From the NCBI GenBank assembly GCA_965223005.1, contig CBDCVK010000002.1, positions 352,001 to 416,000 of the forward strand: 64,000 nucleotides of DNA, in the 5' to 3' direction. Each line of letters starts with the position of its first letter. Within the stretch, counting starts at the first letter, position 1. The notes under the pieces were generated by a model. The model was not told where the DNA came from. It did not search any database and worked only from the letters and a program-made list of their open reading frames with translations. Below, piece after piece: positions 6,906-15,447 of this stretch. The stretch comes from Terriglobia bacterium. Lineage in GTDB: Bacteria > Acidobacteriota > Terriglobia > JAJPHL01 > JAPKYU01. The translations under genes and the position numbers were made by a program.

Positions 6906-7875
6906 TTAGACCCAGTACATGGTCACGGGGCCGTCCAAACGCTTGCACACCTGGCCGGCGTCCTCCATCAGGTCCAGGTGGGCGAAGACTTCCGAGATGG
7001 CCAGGAACATCGAAGAAGTGCGCGCCTGTGGGAACAGACAGGCGGAGAGCTCAAAAACCGTTTGTTCCTTATGCCGTAGGCATTCGAGGAGACGGCCCTT
7101 GCGCTTTTCATGGTGATGGACTAGTTGATCGTGCCATTCCGGGTAGCTCGTCACTGGCTCCCCGTGCCCGGTGTAGATAACAGCCGGACTCAGTTGCCGA
7201 ATTCGCTGGAGGCTTTCCAGATACGCCCCTAAAGCGGGGAAACGCAGCCGCGGCGAGGTCCGGTCCAGGCTGAGCATGGGATTGGGAGTGATGTTCCGTA
7301 ACACGGTGTCGGAAGAGAGCAGAACGCGCCGGGACGGCTCAAAGAAAAAAAAAGCTGCCCGGCGTGTGCCCCGGTGTGGTTACCGCCTGAAATTCCACCG
7401 GGCCGCATGGCAGCGGGCCCAATTGCTCAACGGGCTGATACTTCTCCAGCGGCTCGGCCAGGCCACGCAGCGCCGTGATTCTCTCCCACATGACGCGCTG
7501 CGCCGACTCTAGCGTGCCGGCCTGCTCCAGCATGGAGCGGTAGAAGTCGTCCAACCGCTCCTGATGGTGGCTGAAATATAACCCGTCCCGGGGGCTTGCA
7601 TAGATTGGTGCACCTGAGCGGCCAGCCACCGCCCGGGCCAGTCCGTAGTGATCCACGTGCCCGTGGGTCACCACGACCTTCTTTAACTGCTCCAGGCGCA
7701 AGCCAGCCTCGCTCATCAGCTTCTCCAGCAAGTCCAGGGTTTCCTGCATTCCGGGACCGGTATCCACCAGCACCGCTTCCGGCTCGGTCACCAGGTACAC
7801 GTTCACCGGGCCCACCGGAAACGGAGTGGGCAGCTCCAGCCGATACAGCGGCAGGTCCAGCAGTCGTTCGATCAT
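6906..7875 (-). CDS. MBL-fold metallo-hydrolase, split by a +1 frameshift in an A9 run (7345-7353)
   Basis: THGHVDHYG and TPGHTPGS in 7339-7875; removing one T gives SFFFFEPSRRVLLSSDTVLRNITPNP, joining 6906-7304 (YTGHGEP, C-terminal winged-helix-like region). Confidence 0.85.
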
Positions 7876-9707
7876 GTTTCGCCGTAAAGCGATTCCACCG
7901 CGTCGCGATATTGTTGCTCCACCGTCCGGCGCCGGATTTTCATCGTTGGCGTCAGTTCCCCGGATTCGATCGAAAAATCGCGCTCCAGCACGACAAAACG
8001 CTTGATCTGCTCAAAGCGAGCTAGGTCGGCGTTTACCGCGTCCACTTCCCGTTGCAGCAGCGCGCGCACCTGCTCGTGGCGCGCCAGCTCGCCGGGGGAG
8101 CTGCAAGGCAGGCCGCGCTGCCGGGCGAATTCCGCCAGCCTGTCGAAGTTGGGCACCAGCAGGGCGACCACGTACGGACGCCGGTCGCCCACCAGCACCG
8201 CATTGAGCAGATAGGGACAGGCGCACAGTCGGTTCTCGATGGGCTGAGGTGCGACGTATTTGCCGCCGGCGGTTTTCAACAGGTCCTTCTTGCGATCGGT
8301 GACGCGCAGCTCGCCACCGGGGGTGAGCTCACCAATATCACCGGTATGGAACCATCCATCCTTGACCACGTGGGCGGTTTCCTCCGGCTGGTTATAGTAG
8401 CCCTTCATCACGTTCGGCCCCCGCACCAGAATTTCGCCGTCCTCCGCGATCCGCACCTCAACCCCAGCTAGGGGCCTGCCCACTGTTCCTGGGCGGTTGT
8501 GCCCGGGAACATTGGTGGCCACCACCGGTGAGGTTTCTGTCAGGCCGTAGCCCTCGCAGACCGTCACGCCGGCAGCATTGAAGAATTCCGACAGCGCTGG
8601 CGATAGCGGAGCGCTGCCGGAGAGAAAGAAACGGATGCGGCCGCCGAGCCGGGCACGCAAGCGACCGAACACCAGCCGCTCAGCCAAAGCGTGGCGCAGC
8701 GACAGGCCGGTGGGTAACTGCTGGTCGGCCACGCGGCGGCGCAGGGCCTGCTGCCCGACACCCACGGCCCACCGGAACAGCCAGCGCCGTGGCGCGGGCG
8801 CCTGGCGCACGGCATCCATCACACGGCCGTGCATCTTCTCAAAAAAGCGTGGAACGGCGGCCAGCACCGTCGGGCGCACCTCCAGCAAGTTCTGGGACAC
8901 TGCCTCGATGCTTTCCGCGTAGGCAATGGGCACATCGTTGTACAGGTAGGTGTAATCCACCATCCGTTCATAAATGTGGGCCAGCGGCAGGAACGATAGG
9001 GCCAAGTCGTCGGGCTGAAACAGGTTCGCCGAAGCCAGCACGTTGGAGACGATATTGGCGTGAGTGAGCATCACTCCCTTGGGTGTGCCGGTGGTACCCG
9101 AGGTGTAGATGATGCTGGCAAGGTCTTCCGGGCGCACCGCCCGAGCCGTCTGCTCGAATCGCGCCCCTTCCGCCGAAGCCATCGCCGCGTCCCCGACCAG
9201 ATCTCGCCAGGCCAGCTGACGTTTCTCGTCGGCATCGTCCGAAAATGGGCGGAAGGGGGCGGCGCTGATGGGCACCCCTTCCATCGCGACGGCCCAACGC
9301 AGCCGCGGCAGCCGGTCCCAAACACTGCAAATCTTTTCCAGCTGGGCTTTGTTGGAGACCACGATGCCGCAGGCGCCCGAATCCTGAAGGATGTACTCGC
9401 AAGAGTGCGCCGGCAAGGTGGGATAAAGCGGGACCGTGACGCCGCCGCGGCCCAGGATGCCAAAATCGGCCACCGCCCATTCCGGCCGGTTCTCCGACAG
9501 CAACGCCACACGATCTCCGGGCACGACACCCAGCCGTTCCAGTCCTCGGGCCAGCCACACCACCTGGCGGAACATTTCGCGCGCCTGGATCGAGACCCAG
9601 GCGCCCGCCCGTTTGTGCCGCAGCATCTCGCGATATTCGCGCCCGGCGATCTGCAAGATGATGTCGTTGAGCGTCCGCAAGGCAGAGGTAGGAGTTTCGG
9701 CTGCCAT
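7872..9707 (-). CDS. Long-chain fatty acid--CoA ligase (AMP-dependent synthetase)
   Basis: IIYTSGTTGTPKG, EGYGLTETSP, GWFHTGDIG, DRKKDLLKTAGGKYVAP, ELTPTMKIRR. Confidence 0.93.
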   Translation of the reverse strand: MAAETPTSALRTLNDIILQIAGREYREMLRHKRAGAWVSIQAREMFRQVVWLARGLERLGVVPGDRVALLSENRPEWAVADFGILGRGGVTVPLYPTLPAHSCEYILQDSGACGIVVSNKAQLEKICSVWDRLPRLRWAVAMEGVPISAAPFRPFSDDADEKRQLAWRDLVGDAAMASAEGARFEQTARAVRPEDLASIIYTSGTTGTPKGVMLTHANIVSNVLASANLFQPDDLALSFLPLAHIYERMVDYTYLYNDVPIAYAESIEAVSQNLLEVRPTVLAAVPRFFEKMHGRVMDAVRQAPAPRRWLFRWAVGVGQQALRRRVADQQLPTGLSLRHALAERLVFGRLRARLGGRIRFFLSGSAPLSPALSEFFNAAGVTVCEGYGLTETSPVVATNVPGHNRPGTVGRPLAGVEVRIAEDGEILVRGPNVMKGYYNQPEETAHVVKDGWFHTGDIGELTPGGELRVTDRKKDLLKTAGGKYVAPQPIENRLCACPYLLNAVLVGDRRPYVVALLVPNFDRLAEFARQRGLPCSSPGELARHEQVRALLQREVDAVNADLARFEQIKRFVVLERDFSIESGELTPTMKIRRRTVEQQYRDAVESLYGET

Positions 9708-9760
9708 CCAGGGCCTTTTACTCTAGCAACGAAGGACGGATGTGCGCAATGAATCCGTAT

Positions 9761-10201
9761 TCATTCCCGCCCAGATGGTTCTGCTTGCTTCGTTTTGGGA
9801 ATGTCGCGGAGCAGTTCGAGGATATGGCCGCGCAGTTCATCACGGGCGCGACGGAAAGCCTGCCGCACCTGTTCGGGCGATCCCGTGCTGGCGGCCGGGT
9901 CGTCCACCGGCCAATGCAGCCGGCGCACGTTGCCCGGAAACACGGGGCACTCGCGCGCCGCATTGTCGCAAACGGTTATGGTCAGATCTGGATCGGCCGG
10001 CACCTCGACCAGTCCTTTGGAGCGCTGGCCGGAAATGTCCCGCCCCAACTCGGCCATCACGGCGACCGCGTGCGGATTCAAGCCCACGGGTCGCGTCCCG
10101 GCGCTGTAGACCTGCCAGTCGGCCGGCCCGAGCGTCCGCAAGAGTCCCTCGGCCATCTGGCTGCGCGCCGAATTGCCGGTGCAAAGAAACAGGACTCTCA
10201 T
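9761..10201 (-). CDS. arsC: Arsenate reductase ArsC, thioredoxin-coupled LMW-PTP type
   Basis: P-loop CTGNSARSQMAEG, resolving Cys pair TVCDNAARECPVFPG, HWPVDDP. Confidence 0.85.
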   Translation of the reverse strand: MRVLFLCTGNSARSQMAEGLLRTLGPADWQVYSAGTRPVGLNPHAVAVMAELGRDISGQRSKGLVEVPADPDLTITVCDNAARECPVFPGNVRRLHWPVDDPAASTGSPEQVRQAFRRARDELRGHILELLRDIPKTKQAEPSGRE

Positions 10202-10235
10202 TCGTGGTAATCCCCTTCTCTGGGCAGTATATCTT

Positions 10236-10286
10236 CAGGAGGCACACTGCGACAGGAGGCACAGTGCGACAGGAGGCACACTACAG
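10236..10286. repeat. 17-bp tandem repeat x3
   Basis: caggaggcacactgcga / caggaggcacagtgcga / caggaggcacactacag, just upstream of arsC. Confidence 0.9.
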
Positions 10287-10341
10287 CGCGCCGCTGGAGT
10301 CGCTGCTGCTGACCCCTGGGCGTCCGCAGGAATCCGATCTT

Positions 10342-10875
10342 CTATTCCGACTGATCCACGGACGTCCAGCGCTCGACGCTTAGCCCCGGCGGTTTGTCAG
10401 CGTGCGAGGGATGCAGCTTTCCGGAGACGCGCAGCCGCTTTCCCAGCAGGTCGCGGCGCTTCCTGATTTCGTCAATTTTTGCACCGCCAGCCAGGACGAA
10501 TTGCCGCGGCCGGCCCGGCATCACAAGCAACAGCAACTCGTCTTCTAGGGTGAGAGTTCCGGCCGCAGTTACCTCGATTTCCCGTGGCGAGAAGCCGGCA
10601 TCTCTTATGGCTTTGGGAATCCTGGTCGGGTCGAAGCTTTTGTCCTTCGCCGGCAGCACGATCCCCTGGCCGCTTTTCAGCTCTACCTTGACTTTGCCGA
10701 CGCCTTCCAGGCGCCGCAGGGCCTTTTCGGCCCCGTAGGCTCAAAGCGGTCAAACCATCCCGTCTATTCGCACTGCGGCCTTTTCGATTTGTGCGGCCAA
10801 GGGCACCGCCTCCGTGAGCCAGAATACGCTCAAAAGCGCCGCCGAAAAGATTGTCCTCCGAACCTTGCTGTTCAT
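10342..10875 (-). CDS. Secreted HMA (MerP/CopZ-like) plus OB-fold-like protein with two in-frame TGA (UxxU); candidate selenoprotein, 177 aa
   Basis: AAGGAGG SD; ATG 10875 overlaps upstream TGA (ATGA); signal peptide MNSKVRRTIFSAALLSVFWLTEAVPLAA; VRIDGMV*PL*AYGAEKALRRLEGVGKVKVEL...IPKAIRDAGF with TGA at 10752-10750 and 10743-10741; in frame with ORF 10342-10659. Confidence 0.88.
10698..10740 (-). promoter_or_regulatory. Two SECIS-like hairpins immediately 3' of the UGA codons
   Basis: Hairpin 1 (10740-10713) GCC-UA-C-GGGGCC-GAAAA-GGCCCU-G-C-GGC; hairpin 2 (10716-10698) CGGCGCC-UGGAA-GGCGUCG; G near the start of each loop; loops 21 nt after the first UGA and 31 nt after the second. Confidence 0.65.
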
Positions 10876-11834
10876 TTCTGCCTCCTTGCCACCACCTGCA
10901 ACTTAATGATGCGGTTATTGGCAGCATCGCTGACGTAGAGAAATCCCTGCCCATCAACCGCCAGCCCCTGGGGCGACTGGAACTTCGGACCGGCGCGATC
11001 CGGCACGGACCATTCGGCCAGATAGTTGCCTTCCGCGTCGAGCCATTGCACACGGTAGTTGCCGCTATCGGCCACATGCAAGTACCCGTTCTCGTCCACC
11101 ACTACGTCGGTGGGGTCCTGAAACTGCCCGTGCCAAGTGCCTGAGGTTCCCCACGCTGCCAGAAACTTTCCCCCGGGATCAAACTTCTGCACACGGTAGT
11201 TGTGGGCGTCGGCGACATAGACGCTGCCGTCGGAAGAAATGGTGAGCTTGGCCGGATAGTGCAACTGCCCTTTCGCTTGCCCGTCCTCGCCCCAACTGGC
11301 GAGAAACTTCCCCTCCGTAGAAAATTTCTGCACCCGGTGGTTGTAGAACTCGGTGACGTACACATTGGCCTCCGCGTCCACCACCACACCGGCCGGCGCG
11401 GAGAATTCCCCGTGGCGCTGCCCAGGGCGGCCCCACTGGCGCAGCAAGAGCCCTTCCCGGTCAAACACCATCAGGCGATCAAGCATGAAGTCCACTACGA
11501 AGATTTCGTCCCTGGGGCCCACCGCGACGTCCACCGGCTTGCGTAACTCGCCGCGCCCCTCTCCGCACGCCCCCCAGGTGCGGAGAAATTGACCTGTGCT
11601 AGCAAATACTTGTACGCGGCAGTTCCCGGCGTCGGCCACGTAGACCGCTCCCTCCGAATCCACCGCTAAGCCTTGCACGCTGTCGAGCTGGCCCGGCCCC
11701 TTGCCGGGCGTACCCCATTGCGTCACCACGCGGTAGTGAGGCCCGGCGGGCGCAACCGGAGGCGCTGGTTCCTGGGTGCACGCCCCGAGCAAGGCGGCCA
11801 GCAAAGTCAGCAAGCTGAGCCTTGTCCGAATCAT
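10872..11834 (-). CDS. NHL-repeat beta-propeller lipoprotein
   Basis: Lipobox LLGAC; about 6 NHL repeats (e.g. VYVADAGNCRVQVF, VYVTEFYNHRVQKF, VYVADAHNYRVQKF). Confidence 0.9.
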   Translation of the reverse strand: MIRTRLSLLTLLAALLGACTQEPAPPVAPAGPHYRVVTQWGTPGKGPGQLDSVQGLAVDSEGAVYVADAGNCRVQVFASTGQFLRTWGACGEGRGELRKPVDVAVGPRDEIFVVDFMLDRLMVFDREGLLLRQWGRPGQRHGEFSAPAGVVVDAEANVYVTEFYNHRVQKFSTEGKFLASWGEDGQAKGQLHYPAKLTISSDGSVYVADAHNYRVQKFDPGGKFLAAWGTSGTWHGQFQDPTDVVVDENGYLHVADSGNYRVQWLDAEGNYLAEWSVPDRAGPKFQSPQGLAVDGQGFLYVSDAANNRIIKLQVVARRQK

Positions 11835-12697
11835 TAGAACAACCAGCGGAAGCCAATGATGAAGCTCGAAGCGGGCTTGATTTGCGAGCCGTTCAGGTCC
11901 CGTCCGACCGGAATGGGCGAGGAGAATTCCAGCACCATGCGATTGGACACGATGAACTCAATTCCCGGCGAGAAGAATAGCAGGTTGCCGCCGGTGTCGG
12001 GCAGCTGCATGCCATTGAGCCGAGCCCGACGAACGTGTGCCCCGTTTAGCTCCAGCACGAGCATCACGCTGGGGATGCCCAGACCGTTGCGGGGCAGCAG
12101 GCGGTAGAGGTAGGCAAGGTCGTAGTTCCAGCTGTTACCCCGGCGGAGACCGTCGTTGCCGGTTGTCGTGTAGGTGAATTGGGTGTCAGCGATCAGCCAG
12201 TGGGGGTCGCGAATATGGGAAAAGATGAGCGCGCCGATGGGGTCGGTCGAGCCGGTGCCAAAGGCCCCCCCACTGGGCACCTTCAGCCCGATTTCCGGCG
12301 AGAGCCGAGTGTATCCCCCAGGAACCATTTTGCGCAGCAGGTCGTAGCGGGCGAACACGGCGCTATCGGCAAAGCTGGTGGTAGTAAAGTCGCGGGCGGG
12401 GAGGCTGGGTGCCTCGCTCTGGAGGCTCACCAGCGGGGCCACGAAGCTTAGGCTCAGATGGGGATAGGCGCCCCAGACAACCGCATAGGGATTGGTGGTG
12501 CGGCGCAACCGCAGCCCGGGCACCCCTTCGTCGAAGTTGTCGATGCGCACGAAGCTGCGGAACATCACCGCGCGGTTGAACAAGGTCCGTCCCGCTGAGG
12601 CAACGATCTGGGGCTGGGCCGTGGGACACAGGAACAGCCAGCAACCAAGCAGAGCGATCCTCGTCAGCGTGCGGCCCATATCCCCGGTTCGGTTCAT
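11834..12697 (-). CDS. Putative outer-membrane beta-barrel transporter (MetA-pathway/transporter-like)
   Basis: Signal peptide, amphipathic strands, GLKVPSG..GTGSTD, DTGGNLLFFSPG, PVGRDLNG, C-terminal GFRWLF (BAM-type terminal Phe). Confidence 0.75.
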   Translation of the reverse strand: MNRTGDMGRTLTRIALLGCWLFLCPTAQPQIVASAGRTLFNRAVMFRSFVRIDNFDEGVPGLRLRRTTNPYAVVWGAYPHLSLSFVAPLVSLQSEAPSLPARDFTTTSFADSAVFARYDLLRKMVPGGYTRLSPEIGLKVPSGGAFGTGSTDPIGALIFSHIRDPHWLIADTQFTYTTTGNDGLRRGNSWNYDLAYLYRLLPRNGLGIPSVMLVLELNGAHVRRARLNGMQLPDTGGNLLFFSPGIEFIVSNRMVLEFSSPIPVGRDLNGSQIKPASSFIIGFRWLF

Positions 12698-12893
12698 GCG
12701 TCACGCTCATCCCCCACCTGCAGCGCGCATCCGGACACTGGTAAACCCCACCTTGTTTCAGGGTATCACCGGCTTGGAGGAATCAGAAGGAGCTTACCGC
12801 GGCCGTAAGGTTCGAGAAGGATTTTTACCCGTGAGAAGAAGAGCCGTGCGCTAGCTGGGATTCCACCGCATCTGGTCGAGCGAAAGCAGGATG

Positions 12894-13151
12894 TCACGTG
12901 CGAGGAGAAGCGATGCGCCGAAGCACGTGCGGCGGTCCTTGGACCGGGATCTGGCCACCCTCCCGTTGGTCCAGCACCTTCCGGCGTTGGTCCAGCACCT
13001 TCCGGATAGTTACGCGCTGGCGCTCCAGAGTCCGCGATTGGTGCAGGTTCACACTTAAAAGCAGGGCCAGTGCTGCCAGCAGCATGGCGATCACAACCCA
13101 CTTGCCGCCGCACGGCTTCGACTTGATTCGTTTCAGTGTCGCTCCCAGCAT
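12894..13151 (-). CDS. Hypothetical small membrane-anchored protein (85 aa) with internal RKVLDQR duplication
   Basis: One TM segment (WVVIAMLLAALALLLSVNL) then a coiled-coil-like region; start uncertain. Confidence 0.5.
   Translation of the reverse strand: MLGATLKRIKSKPCGGKWVVIAMLLAALALLLSVNLHQSRTLERQRVTIRKVLDQRRKVLDQREGGQIPVQGPPHVLRRIASPRT
12964..13005. repeat. Exact 21-bp tandem duplication (in frame)
   Basis: cgttggtccagcaccttccgg x2. Confidence 0.9.
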
Positions 13152-13164
13152 TTTTCCGGTCGCT

Positions 13165-13290
13165 TCATCTGCGCTTCCGACCGCTGGGGAGCAACCGCAG
13201 CACGCGGCCGTGATGCTCGGTTTGCTGGCGGAACCAGTAGACGGTGAGGCCAAAGCCAACCCAAATTGCTACCATCGCTATCGCAATCAT
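13165..13290 (-). CDS. Hypothetical 41-aa single-TM peptide
   Basis: GGAG upstream of ATG 13290; MIAIAMVAIWVGFGLTVYWFRQQ followed by a basic tail. Confidence 0.45.
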   Translation of the reverse strand: MIAIAMVAIWVGFGLTVYWFRQQTEHHGRVLRLLPSGRKRR

Positions 13291-13548
13291 TTCTCCGTTC
13301 CTCCCAGGTCTAGGTCCAGTCCGGTTTCTCCCGGCGTCCTGCTCGATGCGATCCACCGGGAACTGTTCTGGCCCTGTATACTCAGATGCACGCCAGACGA
13401 AGTGGGTTTCAGGCGAGAGGAACAGTCGAGTTTGAAAAGTCTTGTAACTCCTGTTCCCTCTGAAGCATCTCAGTGATCAGTCAGAAACAGAGGGAAATGC
13501 GCATCGACCCGGGTCGTCCGTGCGCATCCGGGTCGCCATGCATATACA

Positions 13549-15447
13549 ATGGTCGTTCAAGTGCTGACTTCCAGAGCGAACGTGCACCGCATCCTCTCCG
13601 CCTTCGTATTATTCCTGCTGTCGAGCCCGCTGCTGGCCCAGGAGCTGCGGCTTCCCCTCCAGGGAGACTCGCTGCGCTTCGCAGTCATCGGCGACGCTGG
13701 TACGGGCAAGCGAGCTCAATATGAGGTGGCCGAGCAGCTAGCGCTGTTTCACCGGAAATCTTCCTTCGAGCTGGTTTTGATGCTTGGAGACAACCTGTAC
13801 GGGGGAGAAGGTCCGGGCGATTATAAGAAGAAATTTGAACTGCCCTACAAGCCGCTCTTGGATGCTGATGTCAAGTTTTATGCTGCGCTGGGCAATCACG
13901 ACAATCCCAAACAGCGTTTTTATTCCCTGTTCAACATGGACGGCAAACGGTTTTACGAATTTCGGCCCGCGCCGCAAGTCCAGCTCTTTGCGCTCGACAG
14001 CACTCGCATGAACCAGGCTCAGTTGAGTTGGCTGGAGGAGGCGCTGCGTAGCTCCGGCAGTCGGTGGAAAATTTGCTTCTTCCACAAGCCGATCTATTCA
14101 TCCGGGAAAAGGCACGGCTCCTCAATGAAGCTGCGCCGAAAACTGGAACCGCTTTTTGTGAAGTACGGGGTCAATGTCGTCTTTGCCGGTCACGATCATG
14201 TCTACGAGCGGCTCAAGCCCCAGAACGGCATTTACTACTTTGTCAGTGGAGCTGCCGGAAAATTGCGCAAGGGGAACGTCCGTAGGACCAACTGGACTGC
14301 CAAAGCATTCGACACGGACCGTCATTTCCTGCTGGTGGAAATCGCGGGCGACAAACTGCATTTTCAGGCGGTTTCGAGGACCGGCGAAACCGTTGACTCT
14401 GGGGTCCTCGTGCACCCGGGTTCCGCGCCAGCTTCTGCTGAGGAGGTCGCCGCGGCTGGCCAGCGGCCCGCTCAGTCGTTGGCGCTACCTGGCGAGCGCC
14501 ATTTGAAGAACATCCGCCAGCTCACCTTCGGCGGCCAGAACGCGGAAGCTTATTTTTCGCCCGACGGCAAACGGATCATTTTTCAGGCCACCCGCGACGG
14601 CCTGAAGTGCGACCAAATCTTCATCATGAACACGGACGGGTCCGACGTGCGCATGGTCTCGACCGGCAAGGGGCGTACCACCTGCGGCTACTTTCTGCCC
14701 GACGGCAAGCACTTCCTCTACGCCTCCACCCACGAGGCCGGCACCGAGTGTCCCCCGCGGCCCGATCGCAGCCGCGGCTACGTCTGGCCGATCTATTCCG
14801 GCTACGATGTCTACCTGGCCCGCGATAACGGGAAAATCGTCCGCAAGCTGACCGACCAGCCCGGCTACGACGCCGAGGCCACGGTGAGCTGGGGCACTGG
14901 CAGGATCGTCTGGACGGCGCTGCGCGAGGGCGACCTGGACATGTATTCGATGGACCTGGCCGGGAAGCATGTGAAGCGACTGACGCACAAGCCGGGCTAC
15001 GATGGGGGCGCCTTCTATTCGCCTGACGGAACCAGGCTCGTCTGGCGCGCTCACCATCCCGCCGGCACCTCCGCCCTGGCCGACTACCGCAGCCTGCTGG
15101 ACCGGAACCTCACCGCTCCCATGAAGATGGAACTGTTCGTGGCTGATGCCGACGGCCTGAACCCGCGCCAAATCACTTCATTCGGCTGTGCCAGCTTTGC
15201 TCCGTTCTTCACCCCCGACGGCCGCAACATCATCTTCTCCTCCAACAAGAACCGCTGCGACAGCCGGTTTTTCGAGCTGTTTCTGGTGAACACGGATGGC
15301 AGCGGCCTGGAGCAGGTGACCCGCTCAGGCGGCTTCAATTCCTTCCCGGTGTTTTCCCCCGATGGCAAGAAGCTGCTGTTTGTGTCGGACCGCAACGCCC
15401 GCGAGCGTTACGAATTCAACATTTTTATTGCCGATTGGCAGCCCTAG
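13549..15447 (+). CDS. Secreted metallophosphoesterase (calcineurin-like/PAP-type) fused to a TolB/PD40 beta-propeller
   Basis: Signal peptide; GDAG, LGDNLY, LGNHD, FFHKP, AGHDH; then NAEAYFSPDG, GGAFYSPDG, APFFTPDG, FPVFSPDG repeats. Confidence 0.88.
   Translation: MVVQVLTSRANVHRILSAFVLFLLSSPLLAQELRLPLQGDSLRFAVIGDAGTGKRAQYEVAEQLALFHRKSSFELVLMLGDNLYGGEGPGDYKKKFELPYKPLLDADVKFYAALGNHDNPKQRFYSLFNMDGKRFYEFRPAPQVQLFALDSTRMNQAQLSWLEEALRSSGSRWKICFFHKPIYSSGKRHGSSMKLRRKLEPLFVKYGVNVVFAGHDHVYERLKPQNGIYYFVSGAAGKLRKGNVRRTNWTAKAFDTDRHFLLVEIAGDKLHFQAVSRTGETVDSGVLVHPGSAPASAEEVAAAGQRPAQSLALPGERHLKNIRQLTFGGQNAEAYFSPDGKRIIFQATRDGLKCDQIFIMNTDGSDVRMVSTGKGRTTCGYFLPDGKHFLYASTHEAGTECPPRPDRSRGYVWPIYSGYDVYLARDNGKIVRKLTDQPGYDAEATVSWGTGRIVWTALREGDLDMYSMDLAGKHVKRLTHKPGYDGGAFYSPDGTRLVWRAHHPAGTSALADYRSLLDRNLTAPMKMELFVADADGLNPRQITSFGCASFAPFFTPDGRNIIFSSNKNRCDSRFFELFLVNTDGSGLEQVTRSGGFNSFPVFSPDGKKLLFVSDRNARERYEFNIFIADWQP

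Follow-up and report, generated by a model that had tools for sequence, protein, structure and literature searches.

A gene with two in-frame TGA codons, lying at positions 10342-10875 on the minus strand of a 64,000-nucleotide (nt) stretch of a Terriglobia bacterium genome (assembly GCA_965223005.1, contig CBDCVK010000002.1, positions 352,001 to 416,000; this whole stretch is here called the window), very probably encodes a genuine selenoprotein, as judged from its sequence and that of its relatives. When TGA is read through, the region forms one frame of 177 codons followed by a TAG stop, interrupted by TGA at codons 42 and 45 alone. The product (MNSKVRR...VRIDGMVUPLUAYGAEKALRRLEGV...DQSE) is predicted to be a secreted protein with a heavy-metal-associated (HMA) domain joined to a C-terminal OB-fold, and selenocysteine (Sec, U) is likely to occupy both codons, so that the CxxC motif of such domains would become UxxU. 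The explanation that best accounts for the data as a whole, held here with moderate confidence, is a periplasmic double-Sec HMA-OB protein, both UGAs of which would be read as Sec by means of tandem hairpins and which would exchange soft metals with an outer-membrane barrel.

The double-TGA gene and its relatives

The ATG of the gene (10873-10875) overlaps the TGA stop of an upstream NHL gene (ATGA, 10872-10875), and a Shine-Dalgarno sequence, AAGGAGG (10881-10887, minus strand), can be read directly from the sequence 5 nt 5' of it. The first TGA, codon 42 (10750-10752, minus strand), falls in a column that holds Cys or TGA in every homologue and would supply the first Sec of UxxU; the second, codon 45 (10741-10743, minus strand), placed from the sequence and from homologue loci, would supply the other. 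A plain open reading frame (ORF) scan yields the 105-residue tail alone (10342-10659), and in two homologue alignments the frame is kept on both sides of the TGAs. The neighbouring NHL gene ends in TGA as an ordinary stop and the genetic code is therefore standard, with no code change. Contigs from public runs of three studies (X1, X2 and X7) span both TGAs with zero differing letters, a check that rests on assembled contigs rather than raw reads, X1 being a possible source of the assembly itself. The contig graphs of two metagenome runs are interrupted exactly across 10697-10753, the segment that holds the TGAs and the hairpins described below, and short alternative contigs differ there by 4-5 letters, which suggests strain-level variants of the recoding region.

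A protein search of 41 related genomes gave a match in 13, the homologues being proteins of 150-185 residues, in each of which an HMA domain stands between a signal peptide and a C-terminal extension, and which carry UxxU, UxxC or CxxC at the same columns. A profile search of 401 genomes of the phylum, a tally that takes in three unpublished genomes on which no result rests, returned many full-length matches with zero, one or two TGAs. Twenty places with two TGAs, all from among the matches listed (150, with 337 further), were fetched and read, and every one carries UxxU on the HMA motif; the forms seen are GMTUPLU, GLTUPLU, GMTUNFU, GITUALU, GMTUALU, GMAUSLU, GMQUSLU, GLAUPLU, GATUATU, GMTUGLU and GMYUGLU. 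GMTUNFU is the form of G001, a genome of the same genus as the window's own that also encodes a TlpA-like redoxin. Three more UxxU orthologues come from named metagenome-assembled genome (MAG) records, two of them Acidobacteria or Acidobacteriota and one Gemmatimonadota (single-protein scan, 8 loci). With duplicate loci counted once (L017/L035, which is the window itself, L018, L034, L039, L050, L052, L053, L056, L058, L060 and L062), the loci read comprise 24 UxxU, 16 UxxC and 13 CxxC, the 24 being the window, the 20 from the profile search and the three MAG records.

Cys stands opposite both TGAs in the 13 CxxC loci and in numerous Cys-type proteins from databases, and UxxC intermediates are seen. 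The TGA pair is not a product of chance, because TGA-TGA stands at the same two columns in 23 further loci of other genomes, and all 24 loci keep the reading frame on either side of the TGAs, with signal peptide, motif and C-terminal domain intact. In a quick maximum-likelihood tree of 72 rows, made with IQ-TREE and SH-aLRT support, at least eight changes among Sec and Cys states are required, Sec and Cys forms being close sisters. Full-length Cys-type members are common in public protein sets, where the sole name found for one of them is 'heavy-metal-associated domain-containing protein'; Sec-type members are present there as truncated fragments, for example the P0060 cluster of 118 residues. 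Two of the UxxU orthologues, from an 'Acidobacteria bacterium' MAG (L084) and a 'Gemmatimonadota bacterium' MAG (L085), are nearly identical, with tree branches of 0.04, which points to a recent transfer or a binning error.

These results bear on an earlier note on the same DNA, made from the letters alone, which had proposed a hidden frame reaching up to an ATG at 10875 with an AAGGAGG site and an ATGA overlap, all of which are found in the sequence. Its placement of both TGAs on the two Cys of an HMA motif agrees with the Pfam match and the homologue columns, and its argument that no code change is involved is borne out by the stop of the NHL gene. The note had further considered a double nonsense mutation unlikely and had read in the product a signal peptide followed by an HMA domain and a C-terminal domain resembling an OB-fold. 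The first of these views is upheld by the UxxU, UxxC and CxxC homologues, by hairpins 3' of the TGAs and by the presence of selA, selB, selC and selD, and the second by AlphaFold2 (AF2), Foldseek and VIA. It had suggested looking among homologues for CxxC, UxxC or UxxU at these columns and in the genome for the four sel genes; all three motifs are seen, and all four genes were found.

Tandem hairpins and the Sec machinery

Two adjacent hairpins follow the TGAs on the minus strand. The first, H1 (10717-10735; CGGGGCC-GAAAA-GGCCCUG), is a candidate Sec insertion sequence (SECIS), recognised from folding, a hairpin census and covariation; counted from the U of the first UGA (UGA1), its first base is nt 18, which leaves 14 nt between UGA1 and the hairpin and 5 nt between the second UGA (UGA2) and the hairpin. 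The second, H2 (10698-10716; CGGCGCCU-GGA-AGGCGUCG), found by the same three approaches, lies directly 3' of H1 over the RRLEGV codons, starting in the window at nt 37 from the U of UGA1 with a spacer of 24 nt from UGA2. The census counted perfect hairpins of at least 5 bp, L051 and L059 being left out by its motif filter. H1 is present in 23 of 24 UxxU forms, 21 of these starting at nt 18-19, with a median of -8.5 kcal/mol, and in all 16 UxxC forms, 13 of which start at nt 15-17; the hairpins found in 4 of 13 CxxC forms are weak (-2.7 to -3.6) and have no common position. The start of H1 is thus 3-4 nt further downstream of UGA1 in UxxU than in UxxC forms, and 5-6 nt from UGA2. H2 is found in all 24 UxxU forms, starting at nt 36-38 with -7.9 to -12.5 kcal/mol. 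The same region holds a hairpin in 7 of 16 UxxC forms, five of them (one subfamily) at the UxxU position, and in 4 of 13 CxxC forms, one alone at that position; L042, a Cys form with the same KRLDGV residues, has no hairpin in the H2 region.

The pairing is also supported by covariation. In a gapless alignment of 21 UxxU sequences, 89.7% of the H1+H2 positions are paired as against 81.7 +/- 1.1 after shuffling, a value that 0 of 500 shuffles reach, and compensatory changes occur in 7 of the 13 helix pairs. When the 3' partner is shifted by one, two or three columns, pairing falls to 35-50%. The four core pairs of H2 are invariant, synonymous sites included, and H1 alone also covaries in a separate test. 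In E. coli, the upper SECIS stem-loop stands 11 nt after the UGA and has a G in its apical loop, the 11-nt spacer being given for fdhF (PMC8659212; this and the other papers below are cited from part of their text). At UGA1, H1 fits that pattern approximately, with a 14-nt spacer and a loop, GAAAA, that has G first; the start at nt 15 in UxxC kin corresponds to the E. coli spacer of 11 nt. An Rfam scan of 10550-10900 gave no meaningful match.

The genome, which is 96% complete, encodes a full Sec machinery, each component scoring above its family cut-off: selA (438.9 bits), selB (wing domain, 67.1 bits; G000:C2:349208-349342, some 3 kb ahead of the window), one tRNA-Sec whose anticodon is tca (78.5 bits, RF01852) and selD (357 bits; C10:916629-917552), itself a selenoprotein gene that carries one in-frame TGA. 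The selB gene and the HMA-OB gene lie about 13 kb apart on the same contig.

Neither the tandem hairpins nor the conserved operon with a barrel and an NHL gene, described below, had appeared in the earlier note.

Protein fold, gene cluster and competing readings

The predicted protein begins with a signal peptide (residues 1-28; 10792-10875, minus strand), read from the sequence as KVRR, a hydrophobic core and PLAA|Q. AF2 models it as a helix (residues 3-21) apart from the fold, and an equivalent N-terminus is present in all aligned homologues. An HMA domain of beta-alpha-beta-beta-alpha-beta type follows (residues ~30-100; 10576-10788, minus strand), on the combined evidence of Pfam, AF2 and Foldseek; Pfam HMA (PF00403) matches residues 35-95 with E 1e-8 and 35.8 bits, against a gathering cut-off of 24.8. 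The model of the whole protein, built on a 31-row alignment (pLDDT 90.9, pTM 0.81), gives the elements E30-38, H43-54, E59-65, E70-75, H83-92 and E96-, with the motif in the first loop, and a long strand (96-111) passes directly from the HMA domain to a barrel of five strands, in which a helix separates the third from the fourth. The nearest Foldseek match of the HMA part is MerP (1osd; E 8e-5, TMt 0.82, 29% identity), followed by HMA7 and CopZ, with TMt of 0.81-0.89.

The C-terminal OB-fold barrel (residues ~96-172; 10360-10590, minus strand), recognised by AF2, Foldseek and VIA, reaches pLDDT 91.2 when modelled alone, with the elements E8-18, E21-25, E32-35, H41-46, E54-62 and E71-79. Foldseek relates it to the N-domains of LysRS and AspRS, Stn1/Ten1 and SSB at E 1.5e-3 or weaker; VIA gives Z of 8.3 for SSB, 8.0 for PriB, 7.4 for the NlpE C-domain, 6.7 for YgiW and 6.1 for SilF, all in the range that the tool calls common. 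No specific kinship emerged for this domain from these comparisons, which gave generic OB matches alone, with DUF5818 and DUF4431 below threshold; for DUF5818 (PF19135, cut-off 27 bits) the C-terminal part of the window protein reaches 13.9 and the best relative, P0134, 25.7. An HPSHADKPPG loop, HPSHADKP(P/A)G between the last two strands in the closest orthologues, is common to these proteins, and its two His are candidates for extra ligands.

The HMA-OB gene comes last in a row of three minus-strand genes that overlap one another. The first (11834-12697) encodes a protein of 287 residues ending in RWLF, and its stop codon shares 1 nt with the start of the NHL gene; its product is read as an outer-membrane beta-barrel resembling PF13557 (Phenol_MetA_deg) on the strength of Pfam and of an Atlas feature search, which places it at 0.98 to PF13557 'putative transporter' clusters. 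No match to PDB sequences was found for it at E up to 1. Barrel homologues in seven loci (L069, L073, L075, L077, L078 and L080 are the named ones) score 31.8-47.2 bits, above the PF13557 cut-off. The second gene (10872-11834) encodes an NHL-repeat beta-propeller with a signal peptide (Pfam NHL, E 6.6e-42) and is translationally coupled. A barrel gene occurs in 22 of the 24 loci, nearly always directly upstream of the HMA gene, and an NHL gene in 13 of 24, either 5' or 3' of it. Six of the 24 carry an AhpC/TSA-Redoxin gene (TlpA-like, with CPPC), all six being loci without an NHL gene, and in two loci a thioredoxin-reductase-like Pyr_redox_2 gene adjoins the cluster. In one locus (L067, G431:C3, 4956-6719) the UxxU HMA-OB frame continues stop-free into a BNR_2 (sialidase-like propeller) region, for 588 codons in total, and a BNR_2 gene also lies 3' of the NHL gene in L080; the BNR_2 region of L067 may be either a true fusion or one more accessory of the cluster.

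A metal-handling role is considered somewhat probable. After removal of the signal peptide, the mature periplasmic selenoprotein would have a mass of ~16 kDa and consist of an HMA domain of MerP- or CopZ-like fold, with two Sec in place of the Cys of CxxC, rigidly joined to the OB barrel. The cell's own SelA, SelB, SelC and SelD would read both UGAs as Sec, directed by the two adjacent hairpins in the coding sequence, with either one hairpin serving each UGA or H1 standing at a compromise distance. A soft metal ion, Cu(I), Hg(II) or Ag(I), would be held between two selenolates, as MerP and CopZ hold theirs with two thiolates; a selenolate pair is expected to bind such ions more strongly than two thiolates do, and to do so at lower pH. 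The protein might then pass the metal to or from the outer-membrane barrel, or guard the barrel, the NHL protein, or the TlpA-like redoxin in other genomes, acting as an accessory that perhaps keeps the Se-Se pair reduced. The partnership between HMA-OB protein and barrel, like the choice of metal, is something that we infer. A bolder proposal, offered tentatively and with real doubt, is that barrel, UxxU HMA-OB protein and an accessory of NHL or TlpA-like type together make up an envelope system not described before. Its bis-selenolate chaperone would deliver a soft metal (Cu, Hg or Ag) to an outer-membrane channel or collect it there, and the mRNA would carry a dedicated two-hairpin signal for two UGAs 9 nt apart.

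Several observations weigh against the double-Sec metal-exchange explanation, some concerning function and others the decoding of the second UGA. The window barrel scores 19.2 bits against PF13557, below the cut-off of 22; no reductant is encoded in the window's own cluster, and a periplasmic diselenide forms readily and is hard to reduce. None of the NCBIfam equivalogs for MerP, CopZ and NF041115 is reached by the window protein, by eleven relatives or by a second HMA protein of the same genome (L092). Metal-related genes are rare neighbours, a scan of 106 ORFs finding them in only 3 of 23 related loci: MerT and zf_CopZ genes adjoin the cluster in L083, a divergent MerR-family regulator is found in L080, and a P-type ATPase and an RND pump adjoin it in L086.

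The last of these points also speaks for the main rival, a redox protein instead of a metal carrier. The UxxU pair would then cycle between diselenide and diselenol on an HMA scaffold, acting on a substrate that arrives via the barrel, of which polysulfide, selenite, tellurite and oxidised partner proteins are examples; either the NHL protein or the TlpA-like redoxin would be its redox partner. Such a role would be in keeping with the TlpA/AhpC-type redoxins and the two Pyr_redox_2 genes near related clusters, and it has been reported that most bacterial UxxC and CxxU selenoproteins are redox proteins (PMC13188914). The fold, however, is that of HMA and not of thioredoxin. The closest structural matches, namely MerP, CopZ and the metal-binding domains of ATPases, without exception bind metal; the HMA fold canonically has its metal site in the GMxCxxC loop; and no HMA-fold oxidoreductase is found among the PDB matches listed. 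The redox reading is judged unlikely, although it keeps more weight than the other alternatives.

As to decoding, when UGA2 is in the A site H1 stands only 5-6 nt downstream, as against 11 nt in E. coli (PMC8659212) and in UxxC kin, which is too near by E. coli standards and leaves the reading of UGA2 without an account. The presence of H2 in the five single-Sec UxxC relatives means that it is not specific to a second UGA, and in some UxxU relatives the H1 loop (AACA, AAUC, ACCC) is without the G expected at position 1 or 2 of a bacterial SECIS. The non-canonical geometry at UGA2 would also suit the view that one or both UGAs are not Sec at all, Cys being inserted through a SECIS-dependent tRNA-ReC (selC*) or UGA2 being read by near-cognate suppression, with a CxxC, UxxC or mixed product; it has been found that tRNA-ReC-like genes occur in ~56% of the genomes with UXXU hydrogenases compared with ~2% of other Sec-type genomes (PMC13582414). 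In the present genome, against this, ARAGORN predicts 42 tRNAs, of which one has the tca anticodon (the tRNA-SeC) and one is an ordinary 75-nt tRNA-Cys(gca), and of the 14 RF01852 matches the 13 besides tRNA-Sec are all below 50 bits, the seven strongest of them (a 49.2-bit match and L005-L010) being ordinary Ser, Leu, Trp and Cys tRNAs according to ARAGORN. No second UCA tRNA, unusual Cys tRNA or tRNA-ReC was thus found by RF01852 or ARAGORN in this 96%-complete genome, with the limit that ARAGORN may miss allo-tRNAs, and because the 42 ARAGORN tRNAs hold neither of the first two the SECIS-dependent Cys route is unsupported here. The second TGA is, besides, kept in 24 loci across diverged families, a persistence not easily accounted for if Cys, within reach of a single mutation, sufficed, and an identity other than Sec at either codon is considered improbable. 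As for a decaying HMA gene with two nonsense codons, or an assembly error, the truncation of the gene by gene callers and the P0060 fragment are the kind of trace it would leave, but it hardly merits consideration given that 24 loci retain an intact frame and domains, the hairpins covary, the Sec machinery is complete and contigs of three studies agree at both TGAs.

Relation to known systems and further observations

The earlier note had left room for a protein of a new kind; Sec-HMA proteins are already listed, namely the UxxU family NF041115, a Sec-containing MerP and a UxxC P-type ATPase. The HMA-OB protein would work like these families and is a member of none of them; it is very probably a real selenoprotein and a variant of the known Sec-HMA type. 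NF041115 ('UxxU_metal_bind, metal-binding (seleno)protein') is likewise of HMA type with both Cys of CxxC replaced by Sec, and is predicted to bind metal from computation alone; its model is a single domain of 74 residues, whereas the window protein adds a signal peptide, an OB-fold and a barrel/NHL operon. Against the NF041115 cut-off of 95 bits, the window protein scores 39.2 (residues 28-85 on model positions 1-52), a genome-wide search gives 26.6 at the HMA-OB locus, and eleven relatives together with L092 give 29-66 bits or no match, the best family member reaching 45.7 and L092 66.4. L092 (G000:C8:205447-205632, outside the window) is a second Sec-HMA gene in the same genome, with a secreted, single-domain, MerP-like product that carries GMTUNAC (UxxC); its scores are 63.6-66.4 bits with the NF041115 model and 57.7 bits with that of MerP.

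MerP (TIGR02052; PDB 1osd, 1afi) shares secretion, the HMA fold and a GMxCxxC-type site, and is the best structural match. The window protein, unlike it, is predicted to have an OB domain and Sec, and reaches 31.8 bits against the TIGR02052 cut-off of 92.55; no MerT, MerA or MerR match occurs among the seven window ORFs scanned (7339-15447), and MerT was found in 1 of 23 related loci (L083). A Sec-containing 'MerP' family has been predicted in the GOS survey (PMC2398784), and NCBIfam also holds a model for a MerT/CopZ-fusion selenoprotein. CopZ/Atx1 chaperones and the metal-binding domains of P1B-ATPases have the same fold and motif, the top NCBIfam score being that of NF033794, and a predicted UxxC 'cation-transporting ATPase E1-E2' selenoprotein documents Sec in place of the first Cys for the ATPase family; those proteins, in contrast, are cytoplasmic, with neither signal peptide nor OB domain. 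The CopZ models NF033794, NF033795 and NF047957 give 44.4, 32.0 and 38.2 bits, all short of cut-offs of 85-95 (95 for NF033794).

On the side of the barrel domain, CusF/SilF and YgiW are also small periplasmic OB barrels (Z of 6.1 for SilF-Cu(I) and 6.7 for YgiW), but these are generic fold matches, with SSB and PriB higher at Z 8.0-8.3. The metal site of CusF is made of Met, His and Trp, and such a site is not evident in the OB domain of the window protein. The closest parallel in decoding is offered by the UXXU Group 4 [NiFeSe] hydrogenases, in which two UGAs 9 nt apart lie in a metal-binding CxxC with a SECIS-like structure downstream and which pose the same question about the second UGA (PMC13582414). 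They differ in belonging to another protein family, in having CXXU single-Sec kin where UxxC is found here, and in a SECIS reported as unchanged between types (PMC13582414), whereas H1 is displaced 3-4 nt downstream in UxxU forms of the present family and H2 is always present in them. No HMA-OB or NHL-linked selenoprotein is described in the available text of PMC13188914, PMC2398784, PMC13582414, PMC12013277, PMC8659212 and bioRxiv 10.1101/2022.07.06.499078, supplementary tables and a 2007 paper on Olavius symbionts lying outside this scope. Within the literature available in part, supplementary tables again excepted, no description was found of the combination of signal peptide, HMA and OB domain, of the barrel/NHL cluster, or of the hairpin shift and tandem hairpins.

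The gene and dozens of its relatives are truncated in or missed from public protein sets, so that the selenoproteomes of Acidobacteriota-like soil and sediment bacteria are undercounted. A family with UxxU, UxxC and CxxC members, in which hairpin position varies with the number of UGAs, provides a handle on how SelB decodes two UGAs 9 nt apart, a question raised for the UXXU hydrogenases (PMC13582414). If the reading is true, the series from UxxC (11-nt spacer) through UxxU (14-15-nt spacer and H2) to CxxC (no hairpin) would already provide what is needed to work out how spacing governs Sec insertion in bacteria, and a secreted bis-selenolate HMA site working with an outer-membrane channel would be a new envelope route for soft metals. 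The value of the family is greater as a natural test case for the decoding of closely spaced UGAs than for annotation or metal biology.

The seven window ORFs scanned show, as neighbours, the barrel and NHL genes together with ArsC-like, AMP-binding, metallo-beta-lactamase and PD40/phosphatase genes. The ArsC-like gene lies downstream (9761-10201) and scores 130 bits for TIGR02691, whose cut-off is 174. It was dropped as a part of the system, a homologue being present in 0 of 20 related loci, and the link to As(III) that the earlier note had drawn is not supported. Co-transcription of the HMA-OB and ArsC-like genes in this genome is still possible, because the 140-nt gap between them contains no terminator-like site. 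The same gap holds a 17-bp unit, CAGGAGGCACACTGCGA (plus strand), in 2.8 copies with 93% matching (window 10236-10282), which may be an operator or regulatory repeat. Further along, the metallo-beta-lactamase-fold gene looks split on the minus strand into ORFs at 7339-7875 (178 residues, ending ...HTPGSFFFL) and 6906-7304 (132 residues), and may contain a frameshift or a read-through site.

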